Source of the DNA: Pseudodesulfovibrio piezophilus C1TLV30
GTDB taxonomy: Bacteria > Desulfobacterota > Desulfovibrionia > Desulfovibrionales > Desulfovibrionaceae
Length of the DNA: 32,000 nt
NCBI RefSeq assembly: GCF_000341895.1
Contig: NC_020409.1
Location: 2,970,001 to 3,002,000, forward strand
Reading direction: 5' to 3'
Part shown: in pieces, positions 1-31,268 of the stretch
How positions within the stretch are numbered: the first letter of the stretch is position 1
Layout of the letters: every line of letters starts with the position of its first letter
Program-made: the position numbers and the translations under genes
The notes under the pieces: generated by a model
The model's database searches: none
The model's input: only the letters and a program-made list of their open reading frames with translations
Told to the model about the DNA's origin: nothing

Positions 1-755
1 CGACCGAAAAGGAAACGTTTCATTATGGTGCCGTGGAAAGTTCCTTGCAACTTGAGAATGTTTCCTTCAGCTACCCTGGAACAGACAAGGCCGTTCTTCA
101 TGACATCAATTTGAATCTCAAGCCCGGTGACAAGGTCGGTATTGTCGGCCGAACCGGGGCAGGTAAATCCACCCTCGGCAAACTGATAGTCGGTCTTTAC
201 CAGCCGCTCAGTGGTGCGGTGAAGGTTGGTAATATCGATCTGCGTCAAATGGATGTGGCAGATTTACGGCGTAAGGTGGGATATGTCTCGCAGGATTCCC
301 TGCTTTTTTACGGGACACTCAAGGATAATCTTGCTTTCGGGTTGCCGGAAGCAGATGACCAGACGATCAAGGAGGCGGCTGATATCGCCGGGGTCAATGA
401 TTTCGTCAAGGATCATCCTGCTGGATTCGGCATGATGGTGGGAGAGCGGGGGACTTCGCTGTCAGGTGGGCAACGCCAAGCGGTTTCCGTGGCTCGGGCC
501 ATTTTACCCGATCCTGAAATTCTGATTATGGATGAACCTTCCAGCAATATGGACAATCAGTCGGAATATCGGCTCAAGTCAAAGCTTGAGCCATTTGTCA
601 GGGAGAAGACTCTCATCGTGATTACACATCGTCATTCCATGTTGGACTTGGTGAACAGGCTGGTTATCATGGATAAAGGGCGCATCGTTGTTGATGGGCC
701 GAAGAAGGCTGTTCTCGACGGGTTGCGATCCGGCAAGATCAAGGTCAACATGTGA
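1..755 (+). CDS. Type I secretion ABC transporter ATPase/permease, C-terminal nucleotide-binding domain (5' partial; gene starts upstream of window)
   Basis: Frame 3 is open from the window edge to the TGA at 753-755. Walker A GRTGAGKST, ABC signature LSGGQRQ, Walker B ILIMDEPS, H-loop ITHRH. Followed 8 nt later by a HlyD-family adaptor gene. Confidence 0.9.
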   Translation, partial: TEKETFHYGAVESSLQLENVSFSYPGTDKAVLHDINLNLKPGDKVGIVGRTGAGKSTLGKLIVGLYQPLSGAVKVGNIDLRQMDVADLRRKVGYVSQDSLLFYGTLKDNLAFGLPEADDQTIKEAADIAGVNDFVKDHPAGFGMMVGERGTSLSGGQRQAVSVARAILPDPEILIMDEPSSNMDNQSEYRLKSKLEPFVREKTLIVITHRHSMLDLVNRLVIMDKGRIVVDGPKKAVLDGLRSGKIKVNM

Positions 756-762
756 GGCCGTG

Positions 763-2091
763 ATGAGCAATAAAAAATTTGATAGAGAAACACTGCTGTT
801 CATGTCCGAAGTGGATCAGGCCATGCATGGTTCCGGGCGAAAGCTTGCGTATCTGATGTCTGTTTCCATTGTGTTGATGTTCGTGGGTTTTCTGGTCTGG
901 GCCAAGTTTGCCGTTCTGGATGAAGTGACGCGGGGGTTTGGCAAGATCATTCCATCCCAACGAATTCAGGAAATACAGAATCTCGAAGGCGGCATCCTGA
1001 GCGAAATTTATGTTGATGAAGGCCAGGTGGTCAAAAAAGGCGATGTCTTGTGCCGGTTGCATAATGAGCAGGCTGCCAGTTTTTACCGAGATGCCTTTGC
1101 AAAAGCGCTTGAGCATCGGGCGGCTATTGCTCGGTTGATAGCCATTGTTGAAGGGATTGAACCAGTCTTTGATGATGAATTGGTGGAAAAAGCGCCGCAG
1201 TTGGTGCAGGACCAGCGCCGTATTTATAAAGCCCAATTGGATCAGTTTGATATCGAAGTCAGTTTGCTCCAAGATCAATATGAGCAGAAGAACCAGGAAA
1301 TCAATGAGATGAAAGCGCGCCGCAACCAGCTCGATTCAAGCCTGAAAGTGGCAAAAAAACAGCGGGCTATTGCCAAACCATTGGTCGAGAAACATATTCA
1401 TTCAGAACTGGACTATCTGGCGCTTGAGCAAAAAGTACTGGAGTTGAACGGAGATGTTCAAGCCTTGAATTTAGGTATTCCCCGCGTGGAATCTGCGGCT
1501 CGTGAGGCAAAGGGACGTGTCGAGCAGCGCAAAGCCGAGTTTCGCAGTGCTGCACTGGAAGAAATCAACCAGCGTCGACAGGAACTGAGTTCTATTCGGG
1601 AATCCTTGAGTGCCGGAAGCGACAGAGTGACACGGACCGATGTTCGATCTCCGGTGAGAGGGATTGTCAAAACGATTCACATCAATACCTTGGGTGGTGT
1701 TGTTCAGCCTGGTGAGTCGATCATGGAAGTCGTTCCTTTGGATGACTCCCTGCTCGTCGAAGCCCGTATCAAACCTGCTGATATCGCTTTTCTTCATCCC
1801 AGACAGGCTGCCCAAGTTAAAATTACTGCATATGACTCAGCTATCTACGGTGGACTGGATGGGACTGTCGAGCATATCAGTGCGGATACCATTGCCGATG
1901 AACGAGGCGAAAATTATTATCTTGTGAAGGTCAGAACCTCGAAGAGTGTCATGGAATACCGTGGAGAAAGCCTTCCTATCATTCCGGGCATGACCGCTCA
2001 GGTTGATGTCCTGACCGGCAAGAAGTCTGTTTTGGATTACTTGCTCAAGCCTATTCTCAAAGCCAAACAAAACGCGCTCCGGGAGCGCTGA
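763..2091 (+). CDS. HlyD-family type I secretion periplasmic adaptor (membrane fusion protein)
   Basis: ATG at 763 (MSNKKFDRE) just after the ABC stop. The track start at 688 overlaps the ABC gene and is unlikely. One N-terminal TM (LAYLMSVSIVLMFVGFLVWAKF), a long coiled-coil middle, and a C-terminal GMTAQVDVLTGKKSVLDYLLKPI typical of HlyD/LapC-type MFPs. Confidence 0.9.
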   Translation: MSNKKFDRETLLFMSEVDQAMHGSGRKLAYLMSVSIVLMFVGFLVWAKFAVLDEVTRGFGKIIPSQRIQEIQNLEGGILSEIYVDEGQVVKKGDVLCRLHNEQAASFYRDAFAKALEHRAAIARLIAIVEGIEPVFDDELVEKAPQLVQDQRRIYKAQLDQFDIEVSLLQDQYEQKNQEINEMKARRNQLDSSLKVAKKQRAIAKPLVEKHIHSELDYLALEQKVLELNGDVQALNLGIPRVESAAREAKGRVEQRKAEFRSAALEEINQRRQELSSIRESLSAGSDRVTRTDVRSPVRGIVKTIHINTLGGVVQPGESIMEVVPLDDSLLVEARIKPADIAFLHPRQAAQVKITAYDSAIYGGLDGTVEHISADTIADERGENYYLVKVRTSKSVMEYRGESLPIIPGMTAQVDVLTGKKSVLDYLLKPILKAKQNALRER

Positions 2092-2100
2092 TCGTCGTTG

Positions 2101-3174
2101 ATGACGCGAGCCAGCCTCATACGTCGGATGGCGGCGGTCGCTTTATTGGTGGCCGCCTTCGCTATTTATCCGATGGTTGGTGGGACGACGCAGACGCAAG
2201 GTGCCGGGAACACGGAAAAGGAGGCGGCTGCGGATGATACAGTTGCTGAAAACCCCTCGGTTGAGAGCGGTTCAGAAGAGACTCAGGTTCGGGAAGTAAT
2301 CTCTTCGGGCAGGCAAGAGACACCCCCGAAGAAGGCCGTTTCCACTCAGGCCGTCACAAAAGAGGTGGGTATTCACGCTGACCGGGGTGCCTCAACTCCG
2401 GTCGTTCCAGCATCCAGCCAGGCTGAAGCAGTGTTTTCCTCAACCCCGGTCACTTCCAAAAAAACGTCCCCCGTACTCAAGTCATCTCAACCGACCTCTC
2501 CCGTAGCCAGGAAGGAAAAGGTCCCGGTTGTCCGTTCGGTGCCTGCTCCTCGAAAAGCAGGAAAAGAGACCCCCCAATCAAAGAAAATTCTGCTTTTCGA
2601 CACCATTGAATTTAAGGGAAAAATAAGAAAACTTCCCAAGTGGTCGAGAGTGCTTGCCAAAATGAAGGCTTGGAAAGGATACTTCAAGGATGCGCAGAGC
2701 GCGAAGCTTCCTTCCAGGTCAGGTTGGGTGAAGCTCAGGCGTGATGTCGCGGGGCTTGATCGTATGGGAAGACTCAAAGCGGTCAATAAATTTTTCAATA
2801 AATGGCCGTATCGATTGGATGCGGCGAATTACGGGGCCAGTGATTACTGGGCGACCCCCATGGAGTTCCTCAGAAAATCAGGAGATTGCGAGGATTATTC
2901 CATTGCCAAGTTTTATGCGTTGCAGGAGCTTGGTTTTACTGGTGATTCAATGCGAATAGTGGCTCTCAAGGACCGGATCAGAAATATCGGACACGCAGTT
3001 CTTGTGGTCTATCTTGGCAACGATGCCTATGTGCTGGATAATCAGACCAATATGGTCCTGTCTCATGTCAAATATAAGCATTATGTTCCCCAGTATTCGG
3101 TGAATGAGCACTTTCGATGGATGCATGTTCCCAGGTCGAAGAAGAGTGTGCGTCGAAGCGTGAAGAAAAAATAG
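2101..3174 (+). CDS. LapG-like periplasmic cysteine protease (bacterial transglutaminase-like cysteine proteinase, BTLCP / peptidase C93)
   Basis: Signal peptide MTRASLIRRMAAVALLVAAFAIYP, then a ~135 aa Ser/Thr/Pro/Lys-rich linker. C-terminal BTLCP core: DYWATPMEFLRKSGDCEDYSIAKFYAL (Cys codon 2887-2889), GHAVLVV (His), YVLDN (Asp). Starts 9 nt after the HlyD stop. Confidence 0.85.
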   Translation: MTRASLIRRMAAVALLVAAFAIYPMVGGTTQTQGAGNTEKEAAADDTVAENPSVESGSEETQVREVISSGRQETPPKKAVSTQAVTKEVGIHADRGASTPVVPASSQAEAVFSSTPVTSKKTSPVLKSSQPTSPVARKEKVPVVRSVPAPRKAGKETPQSKKILLFDTIEFKGKIRKLPKWSRVLAKMKAWKGYFKDAQSAKLPSRSGWVKLRRDVAGLDRMGRLKAVNKFFNKWPYRLDAANYGASDYWATPMEFLRKSGDCEDYSIAKFYALQELGFTGDSMRIVALKDRIRNIGHAVLVVYLGNDAYVLDNQTNMVLSHVKYKHYVPQYSVNEHFRWMHVPRSKKSVRRSVKKK

Positions 3175-3210
3175 AGGGAGAGGCATGCTGCCTGTCCTGT
3201 CAACAACCAG

Positions 3211-5304
3211 ATGGAGTCAACTATGGCACAGCAGACCAACTCAGAATTACCGATAAGCATCGGCGGAGCAAGGCAGGGGGTTAAGATCACCGTTGTCCTC
3301 GCTTTCGTGCTGGTGATTTCCGCAGGTATCCTGTTCCTGGCGAGCCGGGCAGTGGGCATCAAGAAATCCGAAGGACTGGAGAATCTGGAGAAACGGTATA
3401 AACTTTTGGCTCATGGCCGTGGTGAAATGTTTACGGCCTGGCTGGAGAACCTGTCTCATCAGGGTGACAGGTTGATAAAGTCTGATCTTTTCAGGCTCTA
3501 CGCCGCTGAAGTGGACAGTTTTGATGGTGATCTGGCCGGTATTTTCGGTGCTGTCGCCATTGAAGACGATGATTCTCAGGGAGAGGGAGCCGAACTCGCG
3601 GCACAGTTGCCCATGATGCAGAATATGCTTAGGGAATTTTCTACTTACTCCGGCTTTGTCAATGCCCGGATTCTCAATCGCCATGGGGATGCCTATATAG
3701 CCACGGATGGCTATCTGCCACCAATGTTGCCGGAGCAGTTGGAGCAGGCGACAGAATCCATGAAGAGCGGCAAACCTCGATTCTCTCCCCTTCGCAAGAC
3801 TTTGCAGGGGCTTGAGATGGATGTCTATGTGCCTCTTTATTCTCCTGATGGGGCGGAAAATGAGGAAGCACCAATCGGTGCGCTGATGATGACCCGACAA
3901 GTTTCTGGTAAAATAACGGAGCTGCTTGCGAATTCAGTGCTTTCTTCTCAGGGCGAACGGACTCGTTTGATCCAGAAAGGCGTTGGAGGCTATCGGCAGG
4001 TGACACCGTGGACCACGGATGGCTTTACACCTGTGCATAGTGATATCGCATTGGATGAAAACGGGGATATCCCATTTGGTGAACGGGGAAGCCTCTCCGA
4101 GCCTGAACAGAAAGTTTTTTCACTTGGGCACATGATCCATGGTCCTGATTGGTGGGTTGTTCAGGAAGGTGATTATAGTGAGGCCATGGGACCTCTTGTC
4201 GCTTTCAGAAACAGTGTGACTGTGGTTGCCGGATTGGGAATTCTTACGGCCTTGCTGATAGCGGGCTTGGCTTGGTGGGTTCTTGCCGGAGTTCAAAGCC
4301 AGAGAATAGCAGAAGAATTCAAAGCTCTTGCTGCTCAGATCGACGATCAGAAACGGTTTATCGATTCCATCAATGCCAATATCGATGAATTTATTACTCT
4401 CAAGGACCTTGAGGGGAAATACACATATGTCAATGATGCCTTCGCCGAAGCGGTTGGGCGCAAGAAAGATGAACTGATAGGTATGGATTCCGCTGCTGTT
4501 TTCGGTTTTGACACGGCAAAGCGAGTGGGGGCGGATGATGGAATTGTCTGTCAGACGGGACGCAAGGAAATCATCAATGAGTCATTTTTCCTCCATTCTC
4601 AGCGCTATGAGTTCCAGATTTCCAAGTCTCCCTACATGGACAAGGACAACATGTGTCAGGGGATTGTCGAGGTCTACAGGGATATGACGGAATTTGTGGC
4701 AGTGCAGGAAAAGAACAAGCGTCTGATCAAACGGGCCATGGAGGCCCTCGGTTCGACGATTGAGGCCGCAGACCCGTATTTGGGCGGGCACACCAAGCTG
4801 ATGGCCGGGCTTTCAGTGGAAGTCTCCAAAACCATGCACTTGTCGGAAATGGAGATGGCTGAAATAGAAACAGCCGCCAACCTTTCGCAGATCGGAAAAA
4901 TGTTTGTCGCCAATGAGATCCTGACCAAGCCGGGCAAATTGACTGATGAAGAAATGGCAGCCATGGAAGAGCATGTGGAACATGCGTATCGGATACTCAA
5001 GGATATAGACATCGATGAAGGGGTGTTGAAGGCCATTTATCAGATGAATGAGCGAAATGATGGATCTGGATATCCCAAACAGCTTGAAGCGGAGGATATT
5101 ATTCTGTCTGCTCGCATTCTTTCGGTGCTCAATGTCTTTTGCGCGATGATCCGTCCGCGTTCCTATCGAGGAGCCAAGGCACCCCGCGAAGCTTTGGGAA
5201 TTTTGGCAGCAGATGCGACCAAATTCGATGCTGCTGTTGTCGAAGCATTGGGGAATGTCCTCAAGACTCCTTCGGGTGAGCGGTTACTCGAAGGTCGGGC
5301 ATAG
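3211..5304 (+). CDS. Inner-membrane signalling receptor: TM, ~290 aa periplasmic (Cache-like) domain, TM, coiled coil, PAS, degenerate HD-GYP domain. Functional LapD analogue is proposed.
   Basis: TM1 about aa 24-47 and TM2 about aa 337-362. PAS-like IDEFITLKDLEGKYTYVNDAFAEAVGRKKDELIGM. HD-GYP fold with GGHTKLMAG, KPGKLTDEEM and DGSGYP, but the HD dyad reads SQ (LSQIGK, 4882-4899), HHE reads QMNE, and DxFDA reads NVFCAM. An alternative start at 3223 is possible. Confidence 0.8.
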   Translation: MESTMAQQTNSELPISIGGARQGVKITVVLAFVLVISAGILFLASRAVGIKKSEGLENLEKRYKLLAHGRGEMFTAWLENLSHQGDRLIKSDLFRLYAAEVDSFDGDLAGIFGAVAIEDDDSQGEGAELAAQLPMMQNMLREFSTYSGFVNARILNRHGDAYIATDGYLPPMLPEQLEQATESMKSGKPRFSPLRKTLQGLEMDVYVPLYSPDGAENEEAPIGALMMTRQVSGKITELLANSVLSSQGERTRLIQKGVGGYRQVTPWTTDGFTPVHSDIALDENGDIPFGERGSLSEPEQKVFSLGHMIHGPDWWVVQEGDYSEAMGPLVAFRNSVTVVAGLGILTALLIAGLAWWVLAGVQSQRIAEEFKALAAQIDDQKRFIDSINANIDEFITLKDLEGKYTYVNDAFAEAVGRKKDELIGMDSAAVFGFDTAKRVGADDGIVCQTGRKEIINESFFLHSQRYEFQISKSPYMDKDNMCQGIVEVYRDMTEFVAVQEKNKRLIKRAMEALGSTIEAADPYLGGHTKLMAGLSVEVSKTMHLSEMEMAEIETAANLSQIGKMFVANEILTKPGKLTDEEMAAMEEHVEHAYRILKDIDIDEGVLKAIYQMNERNDGSGYPKQLEAEDIILSARILSVLNVFCAMIRPRSYRGAKAPREALGILAADATKFDAAVVEALGNVLKTPSGERLLEGRA

Positions 5305-5327: not shown

Positions 5328-5365
5328 AAAAAAGTCCCCGAAGCTCCGTCTTTGGGGGCTTTTTC
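5328..5365. terminator. Bidirectional Rho-independent terminator between the convergent receptor gene and the RND permease gene
   Basis: 10 bp stem GTCCCCGAAG (5334-5343) / CTTTGGGGGC (5350-5359, two G-U pairs), 6 nt loop. A-tract upstream and TTTTT downstream. Confidence 0.7.
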
Positions 5366-5430
5366 TTGAATCGGAGAAAGGGAGCAGAGGACTGCGGTAA
5401 ATTGAGGGCAGATCCTTTTGCCTTGTGTGG

Positions 5431-8400
5431 TCATATGTTTCGCATGAAGTGACCGATTTTCTCGGCGATTGTTTGAACGAAAACATACAAGGCAGGAACA
5501 ACGATGACACCGAGCACTGTTGCCGCGATCATGCCGCCAAAGACCGAGGTGCCCAATGCATGGCGGCTTCCTGAGCCTGCCCCGGCAGCAGTGACCAGCG
5601 GGATGACACCGAGAATAAAGGCGAAGGAGGTCATGAGAATGGGTCTGAAACGAAGCCGTGCCGCCTCCACGGCTGCTTCGGCAATGCTTTTCCCCTGTTC
5701 ATGTTGTTCCTTGGCGAATTCAACGATCAAGATGGCATTTTTGGCTGCAAGACCAATCAGCATCACAAGGCCGATCTGGGCATAGACATTGTTATCCAGC
5801 CCTCGCACCCATTGGGAAGCCATGGCCCCGAAGATGCCGAGGGGAACGCAGAAGATGACGGCAAAAGGAGTTGCCCAGCTTTCATACTGAGCCGCCAGCA
5901 CCAGGAAGACCATGACAATGGCCAGAGTGAATATCATGCCAGCCTGACCACCAGCAGTCTTTTCCTGATAGGCGATCCCGGTCCATTCATATCCATAGCC
6001 GGTGGGAAGAGTCTCATCGGCGGTCTGCTCTATTGCGGCCATGGTCTGGCCAGAACTATATCCGGTGGCCGGTGTGACAGTGATCTCCACAGTGGGGAAA
6101 ATGTTATACCGCTGAATGTATTCCGGCCCGGTCATTCGGGTCGCAGATCCAAGGGTGGTGAGAGGAACCATCTGTCCTTTTCCTGACCGCATGTAGAATT
6201 TACTCAGGTCGTCAATCCTGGTGCGGTAGTTTGATTCCGCCTGGGCCATGACTCGGTATGTTCTGCCATATTTATTGAAATCATTGATGTAATATCCGCC
6301 AAGATAGGTCTGCATGGTGGTGAAGACATCATCGATTGGCACATTGAGCTTTTTGACTTTATCCCTGTCTATTTCAACGTAATACTGCGGGACTCTACTG
6401 GAAAAGGTCGTAAAGGTGCTGGCGACCTGTGGCAGTTTGTTGGATGCACTCATGAAATTGTCAGCCACGGCAGACAGCTCATTGATTGATGCGCCTGAGC
6501 GGTCTTGCAGTTCAAACTGAAGCCCCCCTGTGGAACTCAGTCCTCGAATTGGCGGGGAAGCAAAGGCCATGACACTGGCTTCCTGAATGTTGCCGAAAGC
6601 CTTGCGGGCATGACCGAGGATCGTGTTCAAAGACAATTCGGGAGTTGTTCTCTCGGACCAATCGTCCAGTATGACGAAGACAGCTGAACTATAGGAGGAA
6701 TAGGCTCCTGAGAGCAGACTGAATCCCCCCAGAGTCACATAGCTGTGCACGCCGGGAGCTGTTTTGAGGTAGTCTTCGAGCTTGTGGACTACCTGGTCCG
6801 AGCGTTCCAGTGAGGACGCTTCCGGGAGCATGCAGTTGACGATGAAATAGCCCTGATCTTCATCCGGGACAAAGCCTGTCGGGAGTATCGAGAAAAGGCC
6901 ACTGCATCCAGCCGCGAAAACAGCTGCCGCGACAATGCCCAGAACCGAGCGTTTTACCAGTTTTCCGACGCCATTATTGTAGCGCTCGCTGACTGCATCG
7001 AAAATCAGGTTGAATTTGTCGAAGAACCATCCCAATGGTCCTCTCGCAGGCTTGTAGGGACGCAGGATGAGGGCACTCAGCGCCGGAGACAAGGTCAGGG
7101 CGTTGATGGAAGAGATGATTACCGACACCGAAAGAGTCAGAGCAAACTGTTTGTAGAGCTGCCCGGTGATGCCGCCCATGAAGGCGACGGGAATGAAGAC
7201 CGCTACGAGGACCAGCGTGGAGGCTATGATCGGTCCGGTGACTTCCTGCATGGCTTTTCGAGTTGCGTCTCGTGGGGAGAGTCCTTCGTCATCTATGATG
7301 CGCTGTGTTGCTTCAACCACGACAATGGCATCATCCACGACAATGCCGATAGCGAGGACAAGTCCGAAGAGCGTCAAGGTGTTGATGGAAAAATCCATGA
7401 GTGGGAAGAGCGCAAAGGTGCCGATCAAGGACACCGGAACGCAGACCATCGGAATCACCGTGGTGCGCCAATTCTGGAGAAAAACGAATACCACGATGAA
7501 GACGAGAAACAACGCTTCGATCAGGGTATGCATGACTTCCTCGATAGAGGAATCGACAAAGCGGGTCGTGTCATAGGGGATAGAGTATTCGATACCCTTG
7601 GGGAACATGGTGGTCAGTTCATCCATGGTATGGCGGACACTTTCGGCAACATCGAGGGCATTGGCTCCCGGCAATTGGTAGATCAGCAAAGAGGCCGTAT
7701 CCTGCCCGTTGAGTCGGGCAAAGGTGTAATAGTTTCTTGCGCCCAATTCCACTCGAGCGACATCCTGGATCCTGACAGCGCTGCCATCTTCATTGGCTTT
7801 CAGAATGATTTTTCCAAATTCATCCGGGTCGGTCAGGCGTCCTTTCACGCGAACCGACATCTGGAATTGTTGCCCTTTGGGAGCGGGAGGCATACCGATC
7901 TGCCCGGCCGGAGCCTGCACATTCTGTTCTTCGACAGCTCCGATGACATCGGAAACAGTCAGCCCGTATGTCGCCAACTTGTCAGGGTTGAGCCAGAGGC
8001 GCATGCCATAATCCTTGTCGCCAAAGAGGCTCACATCGCCGACTCCCTCGACACGGCGCAAAGCGTCATAAAGGTTTATTTGTGCGTAGTTATTGAGAAA
8101 AAGCGTGTCGTATTGTGGCAGACTGGATGTCAAATTGATAATCATGACGATGTCAGGCGACTGTTTCTTGACCGAGATCCCTGCGTTGCGGACTTCCTGC
8201 GGAAGCTTGGATGTTGCGAGGTTGACCCTGTTCTGTACATCCACGGTAGCAAGTTCCAGGTCACGGCCAAGCTCAAAGGTGACCTTGAGTGCCATGGAAC
8301 CATCGTTGGAGGAGGTTGACGACATGTACATCATGTCTTGCACACCGTTGACCTGTTCCTCGATGGGTGTTGCCACTGATTGCATGACTGTTTTTGCATC

Positions 8401-8559
8401 GGCACCAGTGTAGCTGGCCTGAACGCTGACGGATGGTGGTGCTATCTGCGGATACTGGGCAACCGGGAGCGAAAAGAGACTCAGTCCTCCAACGAGAAGG
8501 ATGATGATGGCGACCACTGAAGCGAAGATGGGACGGTCTATGAAAAAACGGACAAACAT
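5431..8559 (-). CDS. RND efflux transporter permease (AcrB/HAE1-type, 1042 aa)
   Basis: N-terminus [25 protein letters not shown], 12-TM/two-large-loop layout, conserved [10 protein letters not shown] in TM4. ATG lies 2 nt after the adaptor stop. Confidence 0.92.
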
Positions 8560-8561
8560 GG

Positions 8562-9782
8562 CTAGCCGTCCTTGCGTGTTGTCTCGGTCCTCTCTGTCGT
8601 TTCGCCTTCATGGGCCGAGTCTTTTGGTGTTTCGTCCAGGGGGACAACTTCGGGAGTGACGGTCATACCGGGTCTGACCCGGTTGATTCCATCAACGATG
8701 ATCTGGTCGTCAGCCTTGAGGCCGCTCTTGATGACAACGAGGCCATTGACCTCGAATCCGAGGGTTACCGGCTGATTGACGATCGTTCCTTCGTTGGTCA
8801 CGAGGTACACTGATTTCATCCCCTGGACGTCAAGGATACCTCGAACAGGAATGACAATCGCCTCTTTGGCCATATCCATGAGCACACGTATTTTCCCATA
8901 TTGTCCGGGGCGGAGCAGCCCACTGGGGTTCGGGAATGAGACCCGTATACCCAAGGTGCCTGTCTGGGAATCAATGGCTCGGTCAACCATGCTGAATGAG
9001 CCACTCTGGTCATATTCTTCACCATCGGCCAAGATCAGTTTAATACTGTTTTTGGGAGGTTTCTCCCCGAGTTGGCCTTTTTTGGCCCTGACATATTCAC
9101 TTTCGCTGACGCTGAAGCTGACATAAACCGGGTCCACCGTGGAGATTGTCGCCAGGAGTGTGGATTCATTTTGGCCCACCAAATTACCAATATCAACTTG
9201 AGCTCGGCCAATAACACCGTCTATGGGAGAATATATTTTGGTATAGCCCAATTGGATCCGGGCATTTTCGACCTGTGCGTTACTTTCACGAACCTTTGCC
9301 TGGTAAGTGTCAAAATCTGTTTGATATCCTTCGAACTCATCCTGACTGACCACGCCTTCTTCCAGCAGTTTCTGGAACCGGTCAAAATCCTTTTTTGCCT
9401 TGGCAAGCAGTGCCTGATTGTATTCCAGCCCTGAGAGAGCCACGTTCAAATCTTCCTCAAAAGGTTTGGGGTCGATGATGAAAAGCAGATCACCCTTTTT
9501 GACGTGAAGTCCTTCCTTGAATCGTTTTTCCTGCAAGAATCCGGCGACACGGGCGCGCACATCGACTGAGTCCACTGCGCTGATCTGACCGATAAACTCC
9601 CCCCAGTAAGGCATATCTCTTGTCGTGGCTCTGACCACTTTCATGGAGGGAGCTAATTGTACCTCTGGGGGAGCTTTTTCTTCCCCGCCGTCACATGCTG
9701 TCAGGAGTTGGATGCACAGAAAGATTCCCATGATGAGAGCGGGATAGTGGAATATTTTTTTCTTGGCCATGGTATCCTTCAT
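8562..9782 (-). CDS. RND efflux periplasmic adaptor subunit (AcrA/MFP family lipoprotein)
   Basis: Lipobox LLTAC after a hydrophobic leader. Biotinyl-lipoyl-like [11 protein letters not shown], coiled-coil hairpin, [13 protein letters not shown] motif. Immediately upstream of the RND permease. Confidence 0.9.
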
Positions 9783-10006
9783 TGTTTGAGGTTGTATGTC
9801 CTGGTCCGAATTTGTTGAGAATTATATGAGAATTCAATATGATATCTTTGCACTCTTTTGCAGAGCATGATCAATCTATGACTCAGAGTCTGTATGGGCG
9901 CAATGATTATAGCCGGGCTGGATCCTGCAAAGCCACATGTTGACTCAAATGGCGTGAAACCGTACTGAACTTTTACGAACAATTGTCATTCTTATCGGAG
10001 GCGAGG

Positions 10007-11544: not shown

Positions 11545-12342
11545 TTAACGCTTGATATCCAGTTCCCGTTTTTTCGTATAAATGAAGCGGACCATTTCAT
11601 ACTCGAAGGGAGAGCCTGTCGAGTGATATCTGAACGGTGTGTTGGCTCGAAGATTGATGCCCCGCACAAGCTGTTCAGTCAAGCTTCGGGCAGTGGTGTC
11701 ATCAACGCCAATGGCTCTGTAAATGTACTGCATCTCCAGATATTGGAGGAGCGTGTCACCACCATAGCCTGCGGCATCTCTGAGATTGGATGGCCCGATG
11801 ACCGGCATGACGAAGTAGGGACCGTTGCCCACTCCCCAGAAGCCCAGAGTCTGGCCTATGTCTTCCTGCTGGCGGGGTAGGGATTTTGCCTTGGATGCCT
11901 GGTCCCATATACCTGCGACGCCAAAGGTTGTGTTGATCAGGATTCGGGAAATCGTGATGAAAGATTTTTCCAATTTCCCTTGGAGGAGGCAGTTGACCAG
12001 AACAGGCACCTCGTGGAGGTTGTTGATGACATTGCTCACGCCAGTCCGGACCGGGGAGGGAAGAACCAGTCGGTAGGCTTTCGTCGCAGGAATCAGAACA
12101 TATTCATCCACATTGGCATTGAATTCATATAAATTCCGATTCATCGGCTCCCATGGATCGTAAACATCCAGGAACCTGAGCGATCGGGAATCTTCAGTGG
12201 GCCAGCGGTGAACCTGTGTCTTGAAACCTGTGGGTTGCAGATTCGACATGGGGTCAATGGTCGTCATGGTTTTGGGACCACATGCCCCGAGCAGGAGCAT
12301 CACCGCAAATATGAAGGCAAGATGGGGCTTGAGGTGTTTCAT
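11545..12342 (-). CDS. mlaA: MlaA/VacJ family outer-membrane lipoprotein
   Basis: Lipobox LLLGACG. DPWEPMNRNLYEFN, NLHEVPVLVNCLLQGK, INTTFGVAGIWD and GPYFVMPVIGPSNLRD are typical MlaA/VacJ blocks. Confidence 0.88.
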   Translation of the reverse strand: MKHLKPHLAFIFAVMLLLGACGPKTMTTIDPMSNLQPTGFKTQVHRWPTEDSRSLRFLDVYDPWEPMNRNLYEFNANVDEYVLIPATKAYRLVLPSPVRTGVSNVINNLHEVPVLVNCLLQGKLEKSFITISRILINTTFGVAGIWDQASKAKSLPRQQEDIGQTLGFWGVGNGPYFVMPVIGPSNLRDAAGYGGDTLLQYLEMQYIYRAIGVDDTTARSLTEQLVRGINLRANTPFRYHSTGSPFEYEMVRFIYTKKRELDIKR

Positions 12343-13607
12343 GGGCGCACCATCCGAACCATGGTTTCGACAAAGGCAGGATGTCTCATATTGCCGCAGT
12401 GTCCACCGGTGGGGAATAGAAAGGCCCGCGAGCCGAAAGTATTTTCGATGAACCGTAAATCATCCCTGTCAAGAATGACATCATCCCGATTGCCGATAAG
12501 GACTATCTTGTCGGTCGTCTTGAGGTATTCGCTGATATCCTTGAGACTGCACTGTCGCAACACTGTCCTCCTGTCCAGTCCCGGCTTCATGTATTGGATG
12601 AACGGGAGCAGGTATTCATCCAGATACTCTTCAAATCGAACGTCAAATGCCTGCTGGGCATACGGCAGTAATGATGTGCCCGTTTTGAGCGGATAGTCCT
12701 GAGGGGGAACGAGGTATTCCGCCCGTAGACAGACATCTGAGGCAAAGATCATGGAAGCGGATGAGGTGCGGAAAGCGCCTCCGATAAGTGTCTTGAGGTC
12801 TTTGTCCCGGAAATTTACACGGGTCACCATGCGGTAGAGAAAGTCATCATCGAGGTCGGTAACATCAGCGGTTCTGTAGTATTCTGAAAAGCGGTCAATG
12901 ACTTTTTCGATCTGCTCCCGGACCGTTGTATCGCCGAGGTTTTCGTCTGTCAGCCATGCATCAAGCCGTGTGACCGAACTGTAGAGGGACACGGGCGGAT
13001 TGATCATGAGCACTTTCTGAAAGCCAAAATCCTTCAGCGTGGAATCCGCATGGGCTATGAAGGCGGCATGCAGAGCGCCGAGACTGTACCCGGCCATGGA
13101 GTATCCGGTTATGTCACATTCCTTTTCCACATCTGTCTTGATCCACTGCATGACCTTGTATAAATCTGCTACGTCGTATGGGACATAGCCGGGAACCCCG
13201 TGCTCGGATGCACTGACAATGAAATTCATATGGGTTGGAGACGACAAAGCCACCACATGAAATCCGGCCTCATGGAAGACTTGAGTCAGGAATGCCATTT
13301 TCAGAGAATTGTGCTCGGCTCCGGTTCCGGCAATGAGAAAAAGTAGTGGGGCAGCCGTGTCTTGCAGGGCCGTTGTATAATACATGTCGCGGCTGTACGA
13401 GAAGACATTCGGAACCTGACGGCCTTCTATTCGGAGGGACCGGATTTCCGGTTTGACCGGATTGCTCACTCTATAGCGACTCTCTGGCGGTGTGCCATAG
13501 ACAGTGGCTTTGTACGGATTGTCAAATGGGTAATCATAGTCCGCCGCTCCAGCCGAGAGTATCGGAAGGAAAAGGACGAAAAAGGTAAAAGCAAGGGTGA
13601 ATCGCAT
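12339..13607 (-). CDS. Secreted alpha/beta-fold serine hydrolase (lipase/esterase-like), function unknown
   Basis: Start chosen at MRFTLAFTFFVLFLPILSAGA/ADY (signal peptide). Oxyanion-region LLFLIAGTG, nucleophile elbow GYSLG, acid DDVILD, His in TGGHCG. Its stop overlaps the mlaA ATG (ATGA, 12339-12342). Confidence 0.7.
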   Translation of the reverse strand: MRFTLAFTFFVLFLPILSAGAADYDYPFDNPYKATVYGTPPESRYRVSNPVKPEIRSLRIEGRQVPNVFSYSRDMYYTTALQDTAAPLLFLIAGTGAEHNSLKMAFLTQVFHEAGFHVVALSSPTHMNFIVSASEHGVPGYVPYDVADLYKVMQWIKTDVEKECDITGYSMAGYSLGALHAAFIAHADSTLKDFGFQKVLMINPPVSLYSSVTRLDAWLTDENLGDTTVREQIEKVIDRFSEYYRTADVTDLDDDFLYRMVTRVNFRDKDLKTLIGGAFRTSSASMIFASDVCLRAEYLVPPQDYPLKTGTSLLPYAQQAFDVRFEEYLDEYLLPFIQYMKPGLDRRTVLRQCSLKDISEYLKTTDKIVLIGNRDDVILDRDDLRFIENTFGSRAFLFPTGGHCGNMRHPAFVETMVRMVRP

Positions 13608-13916
13608 AAGCCTGCAAGGGAAAAAGATTGGATGGTCGCAAAAATATACGGAATAGACCCTATCGTGAACAGAAAAGGGATGCAATGGGTATCGGGGCGC
13701 TGGGGAAAGCCCGGTGTGTTGTGCCGGGTGTCGGAAGTGAGGAATCTTTCCCATGCCGCTCCTGTTTTGGAGAGAGCCCCAATGTCCACGACTTCCTCTT
13801 TCCCCATAGTATATGTATTAGACAACCTCTCTCAAATGCCTTACAAGCTTCCCCACACGCCGTGATTCGGCGTCTTTCCCCATGCCCGGAGAAAAATTTC
13901 ACTCACAATGAGAATT

Positions 13917-19376: not shown

Positions 19377-20042
19377 TTATGCAGCCGCATTTTTGTTCAA
19401 AACTTCTGTAGCTTTACGATAAGCGACGATGTCGTCCACTGTGCATACGGGCAGGCCGTGTTGTTTGGCAAAGGTCACGATTTCAGGAAGGCGCGCCATG
19501 GTGCCGTCGGGATTGGTGACTTCACACAAAACGCCACACGGTGCAAATCCAGCAAGCCGTGCCATGTCCACGGAGGCTTCTGTATGCCCACCTCGCTCCA
19601 ACACGCCGCCAGCACGGGCGCGCAAGGGGAAAACATGACCGGGGCTGGCAAGGTCGGCAGGGCTGGCTTCAGCAGCGATGGCCGCCTTGATGGTTGTCAC
19701 CCTGTCAGCAGCTGAAACTCCAGTCGTGACACCGCAAGCCGCTTCGATGGAGATGGTGAAGGCTGTTTGATACTGGCTGCTGTTGTTTTCGACCATCATG
19801 GGCAAACCGAGTGACTGAACCTTGTCATCAGTCAGGCAGAGGCAGACAATCCCGCTGCATTCGCGTATCAAAAGTGCCATTTGTTCATTGGTGAGTGTTT
19901 CTGCTGCAAAGATGAGGTCGCCCTCATTTTCGCGGTCCTCGTTGTCGGTAACAAGGATTCCACGGCCCTCGCGGAGGGCACACAGAGCATTTTCGACACG
20001 TTCGGTGGGAGTGCCGAACTGGTTGAGTAGAGACTGATTCAT
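19377..20042 (-). CDS. ribB: 3,4-dihydroxy-2-butanone 4-phosphate synthase (monofunctional)
   Basis: From ATG at 20042: [45 protein letters not shown]...[11 protein letters not shown]...[23 protein letters not shown]. Collinear over the full length with enterobacterial RibB as I recall it. No GTP cyclohydrolase II domain. Confidence 0.93.
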
Positions 20043-20166
20043 CGTGAATCTCCTGAATGTAGAAGATGAGTGAATCAGGGCGCAAGGAAAGACAGTAAAC
20101 GACACAGCCCGGAGGGGCGCGAAGCCGCTGTCGCGCATCATGGCGCGGCGGGGTATGACTGTCATA

Positions 20167-20303
20167 TTCTCTTTCATCCGGACTGTTACCGTCGGCCCCG
20201 GAGTTACACCGGGTCTGCTGACCTCCTTCACCCGAAGGAGCGCTCGCGGGCTTTCTGGCAAACCAGATTACCGCCGGTGGGGACTTCCACCCCGCCCTGA
20301 GAA
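20167..20303 (-). promoter_or_regulatory. FMN riboswitch (RFN element) aptamer in the ribB leader
   Basis: Minus-strand sense reads UUCUCAGGGCGGGGUGGAAGUCCCCACCGGCGGUAAUCUGGUUUGCCAGAAAGCCCGCGAGCGCUCCUUCGGGUGAAGGAGGUCAGCAGACCCGGUGUAACUCCGGGGCCGACGGUAACAGUCCGGAUGAAAGAGAA. All conserved RFN blocks are present, and the P1 helix closes UUCUC/GAGAA. Confidence 0.93.
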
Positions 20304-20315
20304 CAAGTTGAGGCA

Positions 20316-29614: not shown

Positions 29615-29705
29615 GTATTCTCTCCGCTCATGGTTCTAGCGGGTTTTGGCATCGCTGAAAACCTGAAATACGTGACTGTTTGGTCGAATCTTCGATGAAA
29701 GTGTG

Positions 29706-29734
29706 TTGACATACATGATTCTTCATGTAGCGTT
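29706..29734 (+). promoter_or_regulatory. Possible sigma-70 promoter with an embedded 6 bp inverted repeat, upstream of the lipoprotein gene
   Basis: TTGACA (29706-29711), 16 nt spacer, TAGCGT. ACATGA (29713-29718) / TCATGT (29723-29728) lies within the spacer. Confidence 0.3.
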
Positions 29735-29765
29735 GAATATATCCATAAAAGCATTGGGGGATGCC

Positions 29766-31268
29766 ATGAAAGCAGTCAGACGAATCGTGTGTGTCGTTGT
29801 TCTCGCGTGCTGTCTTGGTGCGTGTACCAAAGATAAATATGACAGGAGCATGGAGGATGTCGCTCGGAATTGGTGCATGACGATCCGGGCCTCTCAGGTC
29901 ATCCCGATCTATCCTCTGGAGGAGAGTATCCGGCCCGGTGACGTCTTTCTGGTCGGAGCGCCTCATGCAAAGGAAGTGACGCTGTATAGAGAGAAAGGAT
30001 TTTTGCCCATGGATACCCATCTGCATCGAATCAGCGGATTGGAGAAGGATTATGTGGATTTCTACGGGGAAGGATATTTGAATGAGTACCCGGCTCCTCC
30101 TAAAAAAGAGGTTTCTGTGGCGAATGCTTCTTCGGGACAGTCCTCAAACTCTTCGTTACCCTTGAGAGACTGCGCGAACTCTTCTGACGAATTTGGTCGG
30201 CTTATGTGTCTCATCGAAAAACAGAACGGCGCAAAGGGCGGTCGTTCAATGCAATGGCCTCTCGCCGTTTTTCCTTCCTATACGGTCAAGGTGGGGACTG
30301 ATGCTTCGCTGGGAGCGGGGCTTTCCCTCAAGGGGATACCCCTTGGGTTGTCCTTCCTGCATGCATCTCAAGCTTTGGCCATGGTGACTATCAAGGACAG
30401 CTATAGTGTGGGGCTTCCCGTGGATGTGCTCTACCCGGAAGTGACAGCTTGGGCAGCGCGGCCGGAGGCAAGCGAATTGCTTGATGAATATGTCGATGGC
30501 CATGAAAACGTCCTCTACGTTCGGCTTATCACAAAGGTCTTTTTGGCGCAGCAGTTCGACATAGCTCTTCTCTCAAACTCCCAGACTGGCGGCAGGGTAA
30601 ACGTCAATACAGAATCAGCCGAGGGAAACGCGACTGCCGACAATGCAACCATGACCGAGCGCTTGACAGAGCTTGTCATGCAAAACCTCGTGACCGCAGC
30701 GGCCGACCAGATGCCCAAGGGCGAGGTGGCTTTCATGTCCGGTTCATCCAGTGCCGTGAGCCTGCGAGAGACGTTGGATCGTCCTGTTGTTCTCGGGTAT
30801 CACGCTGTTGATATACCGGTTTTTGACGGCGGGAGGCTTGGAGCACCGGTTGCCACACAAAGCTTTCTCCTTGACCGGGCAACGCCCTTGGCCTCGGCCA
30901 GGGAAATCAGGGAAAACCGGTTGAGCATCGTGGATCTGAATCGCGAAGTAAATTCTCTATCCAGGACGTGCGCTGTCTTTTTCATGCATATTATGGCGGA
31001 TAGAAGTCCTGATCGTTATGGCTCAATCGTATCTTTACTCGATCGATTGGTCGCAGAAGCTCAAGAAGGATCAGTGACTGAGAGTTTCTTTGACGCGACA
31101 AAAAAAGATTTCGATGACGTTACCGATGACTGGATTAACGAGGCTGCCAATGCATCAACGGAAGAAAGCGACCGGATTTTACGATCGATCAAGGCGGAAT
31201 ACGTGCGAGCGCTCGGGATGGCCCGGCGTCGATGCGAGAGCATGAAGAGCAGGAGGAATTATGAGTGA
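29766..31268 (+). CDS. Uncharacterised ~500 aa lipoprotein: N-terminal ~400 aa beta-rich domain with a gasdermin-N-like sequence pattern, C-terminal ~110 aa helical acidic/basic region
   Basis: MKAVRRIVCVVVLACCLGAC lipoprotein signal (Cys20 codon 29823-29825). No recognisable catalytic motifs. See the finding for the block pattern. The track start at 29703 adds 21 aa without a signal-peptide rationale. Confidence 0.6.
   Translation: MKAVRRIVCVVVLACCLGACTKDKYDRSMEDVARNWCMTIRASQVIPIYPLEESIRPGDVFLVGAPHAKEVTLYREKGFLPMDTHLHRISGLEKDYVDFYGEGYLNEYPAPPKKEVSVANASSGQSSNSSLPLRDCANSSDEFGRLMCLIEKQNGAKGGRSMQWPLAVFPSYTVKVGTDASLGAGLSLKGIPLGLSFLHASQALAMVTIKDSYSVGLPVDVLYPEVTAWAARPEASELLDEYVDGHENVLYVRLITKVFLAQQFDIALLSNSQTGGRVNVNTESAEGNATADNATMTERLTELVMQNLVTAAADQMPKGEVAFMSGSSSAVSLRETLDRPVVLGYHAVDIPVFDGGRLGAPVATQSFLLDRATPLASAREIRENRLSIVDLNREVNSLSRTCAVFFMHIMADRSPDRYGSIVSLLDRLVAEAQEGSVTESFFDATKKDFDDVTDDWINEAANASTEESDRILRSIKAEYVRALGMARRRCESMKSRRNYE

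Follow-up and report, generated by a model that had tools for sequence, protein, structure and literature searches.

A four-gene module of Pseudodesulfovibrio piezophilus C1TLV30 as a probable orthologue of the Dvh adhesin-release system

Which adhesin-release system is encoded at the start of the stretch analysed here, a 32-kb piece of the Pseudodesulfovibrio piezophilus C1TLV30 genome (NC_020409.1, forward strand; hereafter the window)? Positions 1–5304 carry four genes in the same direction (+): the 3′ end of an ABC exporter gene, followed by genes for a HlyD adaptor, a BTLCP protease and a receptor with two transmembrane (TM) helices. They lie at the coordinates on the + strand given in a preliminary description of the window, and successive genes are separated by 7, 9 and 36 nt (the last spacer becomes 48 nt if counted from the RefSeq start of the receptor); the second and third agree with that description, which had given 8 nt for the first. 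The four genes had been described as a Lap-like, inside-out adhesin-release module whose receptor differs from LapD, the receptor of the Lap system of Pseudomonas fluorescens. Our analysis indicates that the module is very probably the P. piezophilus orthologue of the Dvh adhesin-release system of Desulfovibrio vulgaris.

In D. (Nitratidesulfovibrio) vulgaris Hildenborough, the system includes DvhB/C (DVU1017/1018), DvhG (DVU1019) and DvhD (DVU1020). DvhD is a dCache-PAS-HD-GYP inner-membrane receptor of cyclic di-GMP (c-di-GMP), and the BTLCP protease DvhG is under its control (Karbelkar et al. PNAS 2024, PMC10990149; Font et al. Nat Commun 2026, PMC13090378, the source of the DvhD structures). 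DvhD binds c-di-GMP with a dissociation constant (Kd) of 322 nM and leaves it unhydrolysed (PMC10990149; PMC13090378); binding is metal-free, and no turnover was seen with any ion tried (PMC13090378). DvhG cuts the adhesins DvhA and DVU1545, substrates of a type I secretion system (T1SS), at [T/A/P]AAG after the retention domain (PMC10990149; PMC13090378). The Dvh system is spread across the Desulfovibrionales (PMC13090378). The supplement of the latter paper lists WP_015416033.1 as DvhD orthologue #12, from Pseudodesulfovibrio piezophilus C1TLV30, and WP_015416032.1 as a DvhG homologue in Supplementary Table 7. These are the exact receptor and protease of the window, their accessions and that of the HlyD adaptor having been assigned by exact-sequence look-up. 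Since both proteins already stand in published orthologue lists, the identification of the locus is correct but not new: the system, its architecture, the structures, the phylogenetic spread and this locus are all already published.

Evidence for this comes from the receptor, the DvhD orthologue (3211–5304, +; WP_015416033.1 / CCH49991.1). The open reading frame (ORF) codes for 697 aa and the RefSeq form, which starts at the ATG at 3223, for 693 aa. When the PDB was searched by sequence, the receptor was matched over its whole length by all three DvhD crystal structures from D. vulgaris: 9rc2 (dCache) over residues 58–320 (E 1.4e-54), 9rc0 (PAS/HD-GYP) over residues 377–695 (E 5e-92) and 9rbz (HD-GYP; E 1.1e-57). 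The cytoplasmic part is 47 per cent identical to that of D. vulgaris DvhD. The DvhA/DvhG/DvhD precedent, which the preliminary description had named as a possible one, is thereby confirmed, and the reading as a Lap-like inside-out module is supported by the orthology of the receptor and the protease to DvhD and DvhG.

The domain order of the receptor is that of DvhD. Hydropathy places the first TM helix at residues ~24–46 (3280–3348, +) and the second at residues ~336–358 (4216–4284, +). Between them lies the periplasmic dCache domain (residues ~47–335, ~289 aa; 3349–4215, +), of which residues 58–320 align to 9rc2; a Cache-like periplasmic domain of ~290 aa between two TM helices had been predicted. 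The cytoplasmic part begins with a PAS domain (residues 386–496; 4366–4698, +), which matches PF08448 (PAS_4) over residues 391–496 with 40.3 bits and lies inside the 9rc0 alignment, and continues with a degenerate HD-GYP domain (residues 516–676; 4756–5238, +) that matches PF13487 (HD_5) with 128.9 bits. No Pfam match to GGDEF, EAL, HAMP or LapD_MoxY_N was found in the receptor at E <= 0.1, in keeping with the earlier expectation of PAS and HD-GYP-type domains and neither GGDEF nor EAL. The receptor thus does lack the domains of LapD, as had been noted, although its architecture is not a new one, having been published for DvhD. Membership of the LapD family was considered and rejected, all four LapD-associated models (LapD_MoxY_N, HAMP, GGDEF and EAL) being without match.

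In the mechanism proposed for this module by homology with D. vulgaris, the ABC exporter, the HlyD adaptor and a distantly encoded TolC-family channel would export a giant RTX/cadherin adhesin, which an N-terminal retention module would keep in the outer membrane. The receptor would be a dimeric two-TM protein. At high cytoplasmic c-di-GMP, the nucleotide would be bound by the catalytically dead HD-GYP domain, the stalk helices of the PAS/HD-GYP part would splay, and the change would be relayed across the membrane into the periplasmic dCache domain, which in the c-di-GMP-bound state would restrain DvhG. When c-di-GMP drops, DvhG would be set free and would cut the adhesin at [T/A/P]AAG just past the retention module; the cut adhesin would leave the TolC channel, and adhesin and cell would be released from the biofilm. 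The contact between DvhD and DvhG is an AlphaFold 3 model in D. vulgaris (PMC13090378), and a corresponding contact between the dCache domain and the protease of the window is presumed from it.

The periplasmic domain allows a different emphasis. It is well conserved in the family, with invariant residues that include Q132, P134, M136, F143, R153 and G200. dCache domains are typically ligand sensors, and the authors of the DvhD structures are undecided on a dCache ligand (PMC13090378). The system might therefore be bidirectional, an extracellular small molecule on the dCache domain also gating the protease and the receptor acting as a coincidence detector; the conservation of the domain would agree with this. 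We consider such a scheme rather unlikely. The DvhD dCache crystal has no ligand density, and the conserved periplasmic patches have been read as a docking surface for DvhG (PMC13090378). Moreover, no Pfam Cache model matched the periplasmic domain, so that the search with Cache and LapD_MoxY_N models proposed in the preliminary description gave nothing in the receptor; the missing Cache match fits the remark that the dCache similarity is visible only structurally (PMC13090378). The other two models named for that search did match, PF13487 in the receptor (as above) and PF06035 in the protease (63.6 bits).

The orthology to the Dvh system extends to the protease (2101–3174, +; WP_015416032.1 / CCH49990.1, 357 aa), a BTLCP/LapG-type cysteine protease orthologous to DvhG, for which the score of PF06035 compares with a cut-off of 27. 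Its catalytic core (2596–3174, +), delimited by alignment with DvhG and LapG, is 57 per cent identical to D. vulgaris DvhG and 34 per cent identical to P. fluorescens LapG. The positions of the catalytic triad align with both proteins (Cys263, 2887–2889; His298, 2992–2994; Asp313, 3037–3039), and Cys263 lies inside the Ca-site motif GDCEDY, which is identical in the window protease, DvhG and LapG. With the LapG equivalog model NF045674 the protease scores 93.6 bits, so far under the curated cut-off of 320 that it is classed as a DvhG-type and not a LapG-type BTLCP.

The core is preceded by an N-terminal hydrophobic segment (residues ~10–28; 2128–2184, +; hydropathy peak 2.0) and by a low-complexity linker of ~137 aa, rich in S/V/A/T/E/K/P by composition, which connects this putative anchor to the core (2185–2595, +). 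SignalP values published for WP_015416032.1 are 0.55 for OTHER and 0.38 for SP (PMC13090378 supplement), and the segment may act as a signal anchor or else as a signal peptide that is cleaved poorly. Ahead of the core the protease has 166 aa here, against 37–55 aa at 11 further loci from the Pseudodesulfovibrio clade. At 17 other loci this region is also long (at least 120 aa); by organism name they include Nitratidesulfovibrio, Desulfomicrobium and Oleidesulfovibrio. According to its authors, the membrane anchor of DvhG is possibly peculiar to D. vulgaris Hildenborough (PMC13090378); from these lengths, long-linker proteases seem to be spread more widely, and more patchily, than in that strain alone. 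An origin of the linker from tandem repeats was rejected, as the DNA shows none.

The two genes upstream encode the inner-membrane half of a type I secretion system of the LapB/LapC type. The window begins inside the gene of the T1SS ABC exporter, which is DvhB-like and of the LssB/LapB type; only its 3′ part, with the nucleotide-binding domain, is included (1–755, +; start upstream of the window). This fragment matches PF00005 with 110 bits, and its top NCBIfam model is TIGR03375 (LssB type). The full-length exporter (803 aa), read from an identical metagenome contig, scores 932 bits with TIGR03375 (cut-off 693) and carries a C39-like domain; a search of the DNA ahead of the gene on this contig showed no sigma-70-like promoter. 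The DvhC-like, HlyD-family periplasmic adaptor of the T1SS follows (763–2091, +; WP_015416031.1; TIGR01843, 409 bits versus a cut-off of 209).

Is the association of these genes conserved? One genome per species was scanned, which gave 80 loci with a DvhD relative, and the neighbouring genes were read by tblastn with the window proteins. The loci span Pseudodesulfovibrio, Desulfovibrio, Nitratidesulfovibrio, Salidesulfovibrio, Oleidesulfovibrio, Desulfomicrobium, Desulfuromonadales, Geobacteraceae, Desulfobacterales and others. The co-occurrence of BTLCP genes with HD-GYP receptor genes, which had been put forward as a check, is evident: a BTLCP gene lies directly upstream of the DvhD relative in 69 of the 72 loci with enough flank, and the ABC, HlyD and BTLCP genes are all beside it in 58 of 61.

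Three loci depart from this arrangement (L051, L057 and L075, metagenome-assembled genomes (MAGs) from one project). Each has a DvhD-like gene alone, with the match at 10001–~11990, and BTLCP, HlyD and ABC genes are absent from the 10 kb upstream. In L051 the gene is flanked by split UvrD fragments, a radical-SAM gene and GroEL. The three may be either orphan receptors or assembly or frameshift artefacts.

The module lacks a substrate and an outer-membrane channel in its immediate surroundings. Neither an adhesin nor an outer-membrane factor is encoded in the 32 kb of the window, as the preliminary description had stated; the remaining genes are otherwise housekeeping genes. The upstream search that it advised was also negative for both within 7.5 kb of the operon, where genes for an alcohol dehydrogenase, CofD, a sigma-54 activator and an acetyl-CoA synthetase-like protein are found. 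Using the TolC of P. pelocollis as probe, we identified the T1SS TolC of P. piezophilus elsewhere in the genome (CCH50061.1 / WP_015416103.1; TIGR01844, 238.7 bits versus a cut-off of 225). Its gene lies ~70 coding sequences (CDS) after dvhD, and ~48 CDS past the final large ORF in the window (CCH50013), provided that the accessions are numbered in the order of the genes.

Directly before the TolC gene stands a giant adhesin gene, of which a fragment of at least 2365 aa was read (contigs L085, 3–8557, and L086, 1–8462) from contigs of the same samples as those bearing the window operon. The fragment contains Cadherin, Big_9 and HemolysinCabind (RTX repeats) domains. The block runs from the adhesin gene to the TolC gene and then to genes for MatE, TauE, an FMN dehydrogenase and GntR on the opposite strand. 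The block is syntenic in two relatives, and the fragment is orthologous to the adhesins found there, which measure 4949 aa in strain zrk46 and, as a fragment, at least 3176 aa in a TARA relative. The presence of TolC and adhesin in the genome means that the substrate machinery exists, unlinked from this operon.

Several congeners have adhesin and TolC genes 1.5–4 kb downstream of dvhD. In P. pelocollis, P. karagichevae and the MAG STD2_191, dvhD is followed by a TolC gene in convergent orientation and by the gene of a giant cadherin/RTX adhesin, with a MatE gene in between in two of the three. Another congener (MAG6) has a TolC gene alone beside dvhD, next to glycogen-metabolism genes. Set against the ~70 CDS in P. 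piezophilus, these arrangements could mean that a genome rearrangement has uncoupled the four-gene module from adhesin control, leaving a remnant or a system with another T1SS substrate; the congener with a lone adjacent TolC gene would be in line with such a history. We hold this to be quite improbable, because all four ORFs are intact with their functional residues conserved, because the TolC and adhesin genes are intact over the part that can be read and syntenic with those of two relatives, and because LapG-type proteases often target adhesins whose genes lie elsewhere, as with MapA and DVU1545 (PMC13090378).

For a Dvh-type module, the adhesin should be cut behind its retention module. 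Another 24 loci contain adhesin genes whose N-termini resemble that of DvhA, and most of the N-termini read follow the pattern (E/P)(T/P)AAG ... SGGxGEYxDDxG ... D(K/R)LG, in agreement with the published [T/A/P]AAG site. The STD2_191 adhesin has a retention-module-like N-terminus and then 'SETAAGS...GAGVYMDDEGNL', the stretch after this domain reading 'SETAAGS...SSGAGVYMDDEGNL'. By analogy with these proteins, we infer a DvhG-type cleavage site in the P. piezophilus adhesin. A protein search with an N-terminal profile of DvhA/DVU1545 returned five matches, none of them from Pseudodesulfovibrio, and when the genome collection was scanned with this profile, no match was confirmed. Nothing was found in a metagenome scan with the adhesin N-terminus of a congener, and a scan with a three-sequence N-terminal profile returned five unrelated loci, none from the P. 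piezophilus samples. As the adhesin of zrk46 has 4949 aa, its start lies outside the 10-kb flank.

The cytoplasmic domain was compared residue by residue with the published DvhD residues, which were mapped onto the window receptor with the D. vulgaris numbering anchored on M646-R650-Y652-R653. Of the metal-binding motifs, HD is replaced by SQ (559–560) and HH by MN (612–613); GYP (620–622) is kept. That the receptor is instead an active HD-GYP phosphodiesterase, signalling from outside to inside in response to a periplasmic ligand by way of dCache and PAS, is rejected as having next to no chance of being right: although the domain has its clear PF13487 score and resembles the NCBIfam c-di-GMP phosphodiesterase family NosR (96 bits, far under the cut-off of 400), its metal ligands are gone, the Asp of HD is Q in all 118 aligned homologues and the His is S (114) or C (4), and D. 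vulgaris DvhD, which has the same substitutions, shows no hydrolysis (PMC13090378). With the metal ligands of HD and HH lost, the domain of the window's DvhD orthologue is predicted to bind c-di-GMP without cleaving it. The HD-GYP domain had earlier been called an output; being degenerate, it is better described as a c-di-GMP-binding input.

Seven of the nine canonical c-di-GMP contacts are identical to those of DvhD (Y523, L577, Y621, M646, R650, Y652 and R653), and no fewer than 113 of the 118 homologues keep the canonical contacts. From this correspondence, the window receptor presumably binds c-di-GMP. Both the SQ/MN degeneracy and the canonical pocket are family-wide, which marks them as core features.

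Several points weigh against the assignment to the Dvh system and have to be set beside this evidence. The functional data all come from the D. vulgaris orthologues. The adhesin and TolC genes lie outside this operon and are not co-transcribed with the four genes. The N-terminus of the P. piezophilus adhesin, and hence its cleavage site, was not recovered, because the contigs end inside repeats; the STD2_191 adhesin, in which the corresponding region could be read, is related only distantly to it. In the receptor, two canonical contacts are altered (K582M and E668D), and at the second, 'bridging' c-di-GMP site of DvhD, through which D. vulgaris DvhD contacts a third c-di-GMP, none of the three residues is kept (K520A, P567A and R569E). 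Despite these points, orthology to the Dvh system remains by far the best reading in our estimate.

The two sets of substitutions differ in how they are distributed among the homologues. At position 582, M is the majority residue among close homologues (63 of 81). At the bridging site, K520 and R569 are found in none of the 118 homologues (two have K at the latter position) and P567 in 76. The generality of the bridging site was left undecided by its authors, and P567T in D. vulgaris DvhD weakened stabilisation by c-di-GMP (PMC13090378); given this effect and the changes at all three residues, the stoichiometry or cooperativity of binding may differ in P. piezophilus. The distribution suggests that the polar contacts of the bridging site are not general in the family, and the site may be a peculiarity of the lineage of D. 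vulgaris, not family-defining.

A tentative extension, which we regard as possible and no better than that, is that the locus represents a sub-variant of the Dvh system. Its receptor would bind c-di-GMP at the canonical site only (1:1, not 1.5:1, the cooperative 'lock' perhaps missing), its protease would have independently acquired a membrane tether on a leash of ~140 residues, the sampled relatives in the Pseudodesulfovibrio clade having an N-terminus no longer than a signal peptide, and its adhesin and TolC are encoded ~70 genes away. If this were so, bridging c-di-GMP and the tethered protease would be lineage-specific additions and not part of the family core. The bridging site, the tethered protease and the linkage of the adhesin all vary between species, and the locus offers a comparison point for separating the essential Dvh mechanism from the particulars of D. 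vulgaris Hildenborough.

Position 668 (5212–5214) deserves separate mention. In DvhD, guanine specificity is conferred by E668. The residue is D in the window receptor and mostly G, S or A in a group of homologues of ~40 per cent identity, whose few named members are Desulfuromonadales and Desulfomicrobium MAGs. This pattern hints that some orthologues could prefer another cyclic dinucleotide, for example 3'3'-cGAMP; 3'3'-cGAMP or a similar ligand for orthologues was raised as a possibility in the 2026 paper (PMC13090378).

Compared with the Dvh system of D. vulgaris, the P. piezophilus module has the same gene order (ABC, HlyD, BTLCP, receptor), the same receptor architecture (TM-dCache-TM-PAS-degenerate HD-GYP, with SQ and MN) and a largely shared canonical pocket. 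In both, the protease has an intact triad and Ca-site motif and a hydrophobic N-terminus with a long low-complexity linker, which is ~140 aa in P. piezophilus and ~180 aa in D. vulgaris. They differ also in that the adhesin and TolC genes are distant in P. piezophilus, whereas the N. vulgaris operon has both with the T1SS genes (PMC13090378).

With the P. fluorescens Lap system (LapA/B/C/E/G/D), the module shares the general plan of a giant adhesin anchored through the T1SS, a BTLCP protease in the periplasm and an inside-out c-di-GMP receptor in the inner membrane; the ABC exporter belongs to the same LssB/LapB subfamily, and the protease cores are homologous. The receptor, however, is unrelated to LapD, and the pocket that binds the Trp of LapD is reported to be occluded in D. 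vulgaris DvhG (PMC13090378). The receptor belongs to the same fold family as active HD-GYP phosphodiesterases such as PmGH (4mcw/4mdz) and the cGAMP phosphodiesterase of Vibrio cholerae (5z7c), with PDB sequence matches of E 1.5e-15 to 1.5e-23 and GYP kept; unlike them, it is without the HD and HH metal ligands.

Downstream of the receptor gene, a weak terminator-like hairpin with a T-run was found at 5344–5367 (+), within the 126-nt convergent spacer between this gene and an RND pump gene; it is a consensus match only (one site versus 0.3 expected). The RND genes, convergent to dvhD, occupy 5431–9782 (−) and encode an AcrB-family efflux pump of 1042 aa together with its 406-aa adaptor; no gene for an outer-membrane factor stands beside them. 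Two further ORFs have no Pfam family at E <= 1e-4: one of 471 aa beside mlaA (12339–13754, −) and one of 521 aa (29703–31268, +), annotated as 'protein of unknown function' (CCH50013.1), for which the start differs between annotation sources, giving 517, 500 or 463 aa. An FMN riboswitch (RF00050) lies at 20162–20308 (−), with 116 bits versus a gathering score of 66, upstream of a gene for DHBP synthase (ribB-like). It is overlapped by the mechanically called ORF 19377–20261; because of this overlap, and because the Pfam domain of the ORF starts only from residue 90, the start codon of the gene is probably well downstream of 20261.

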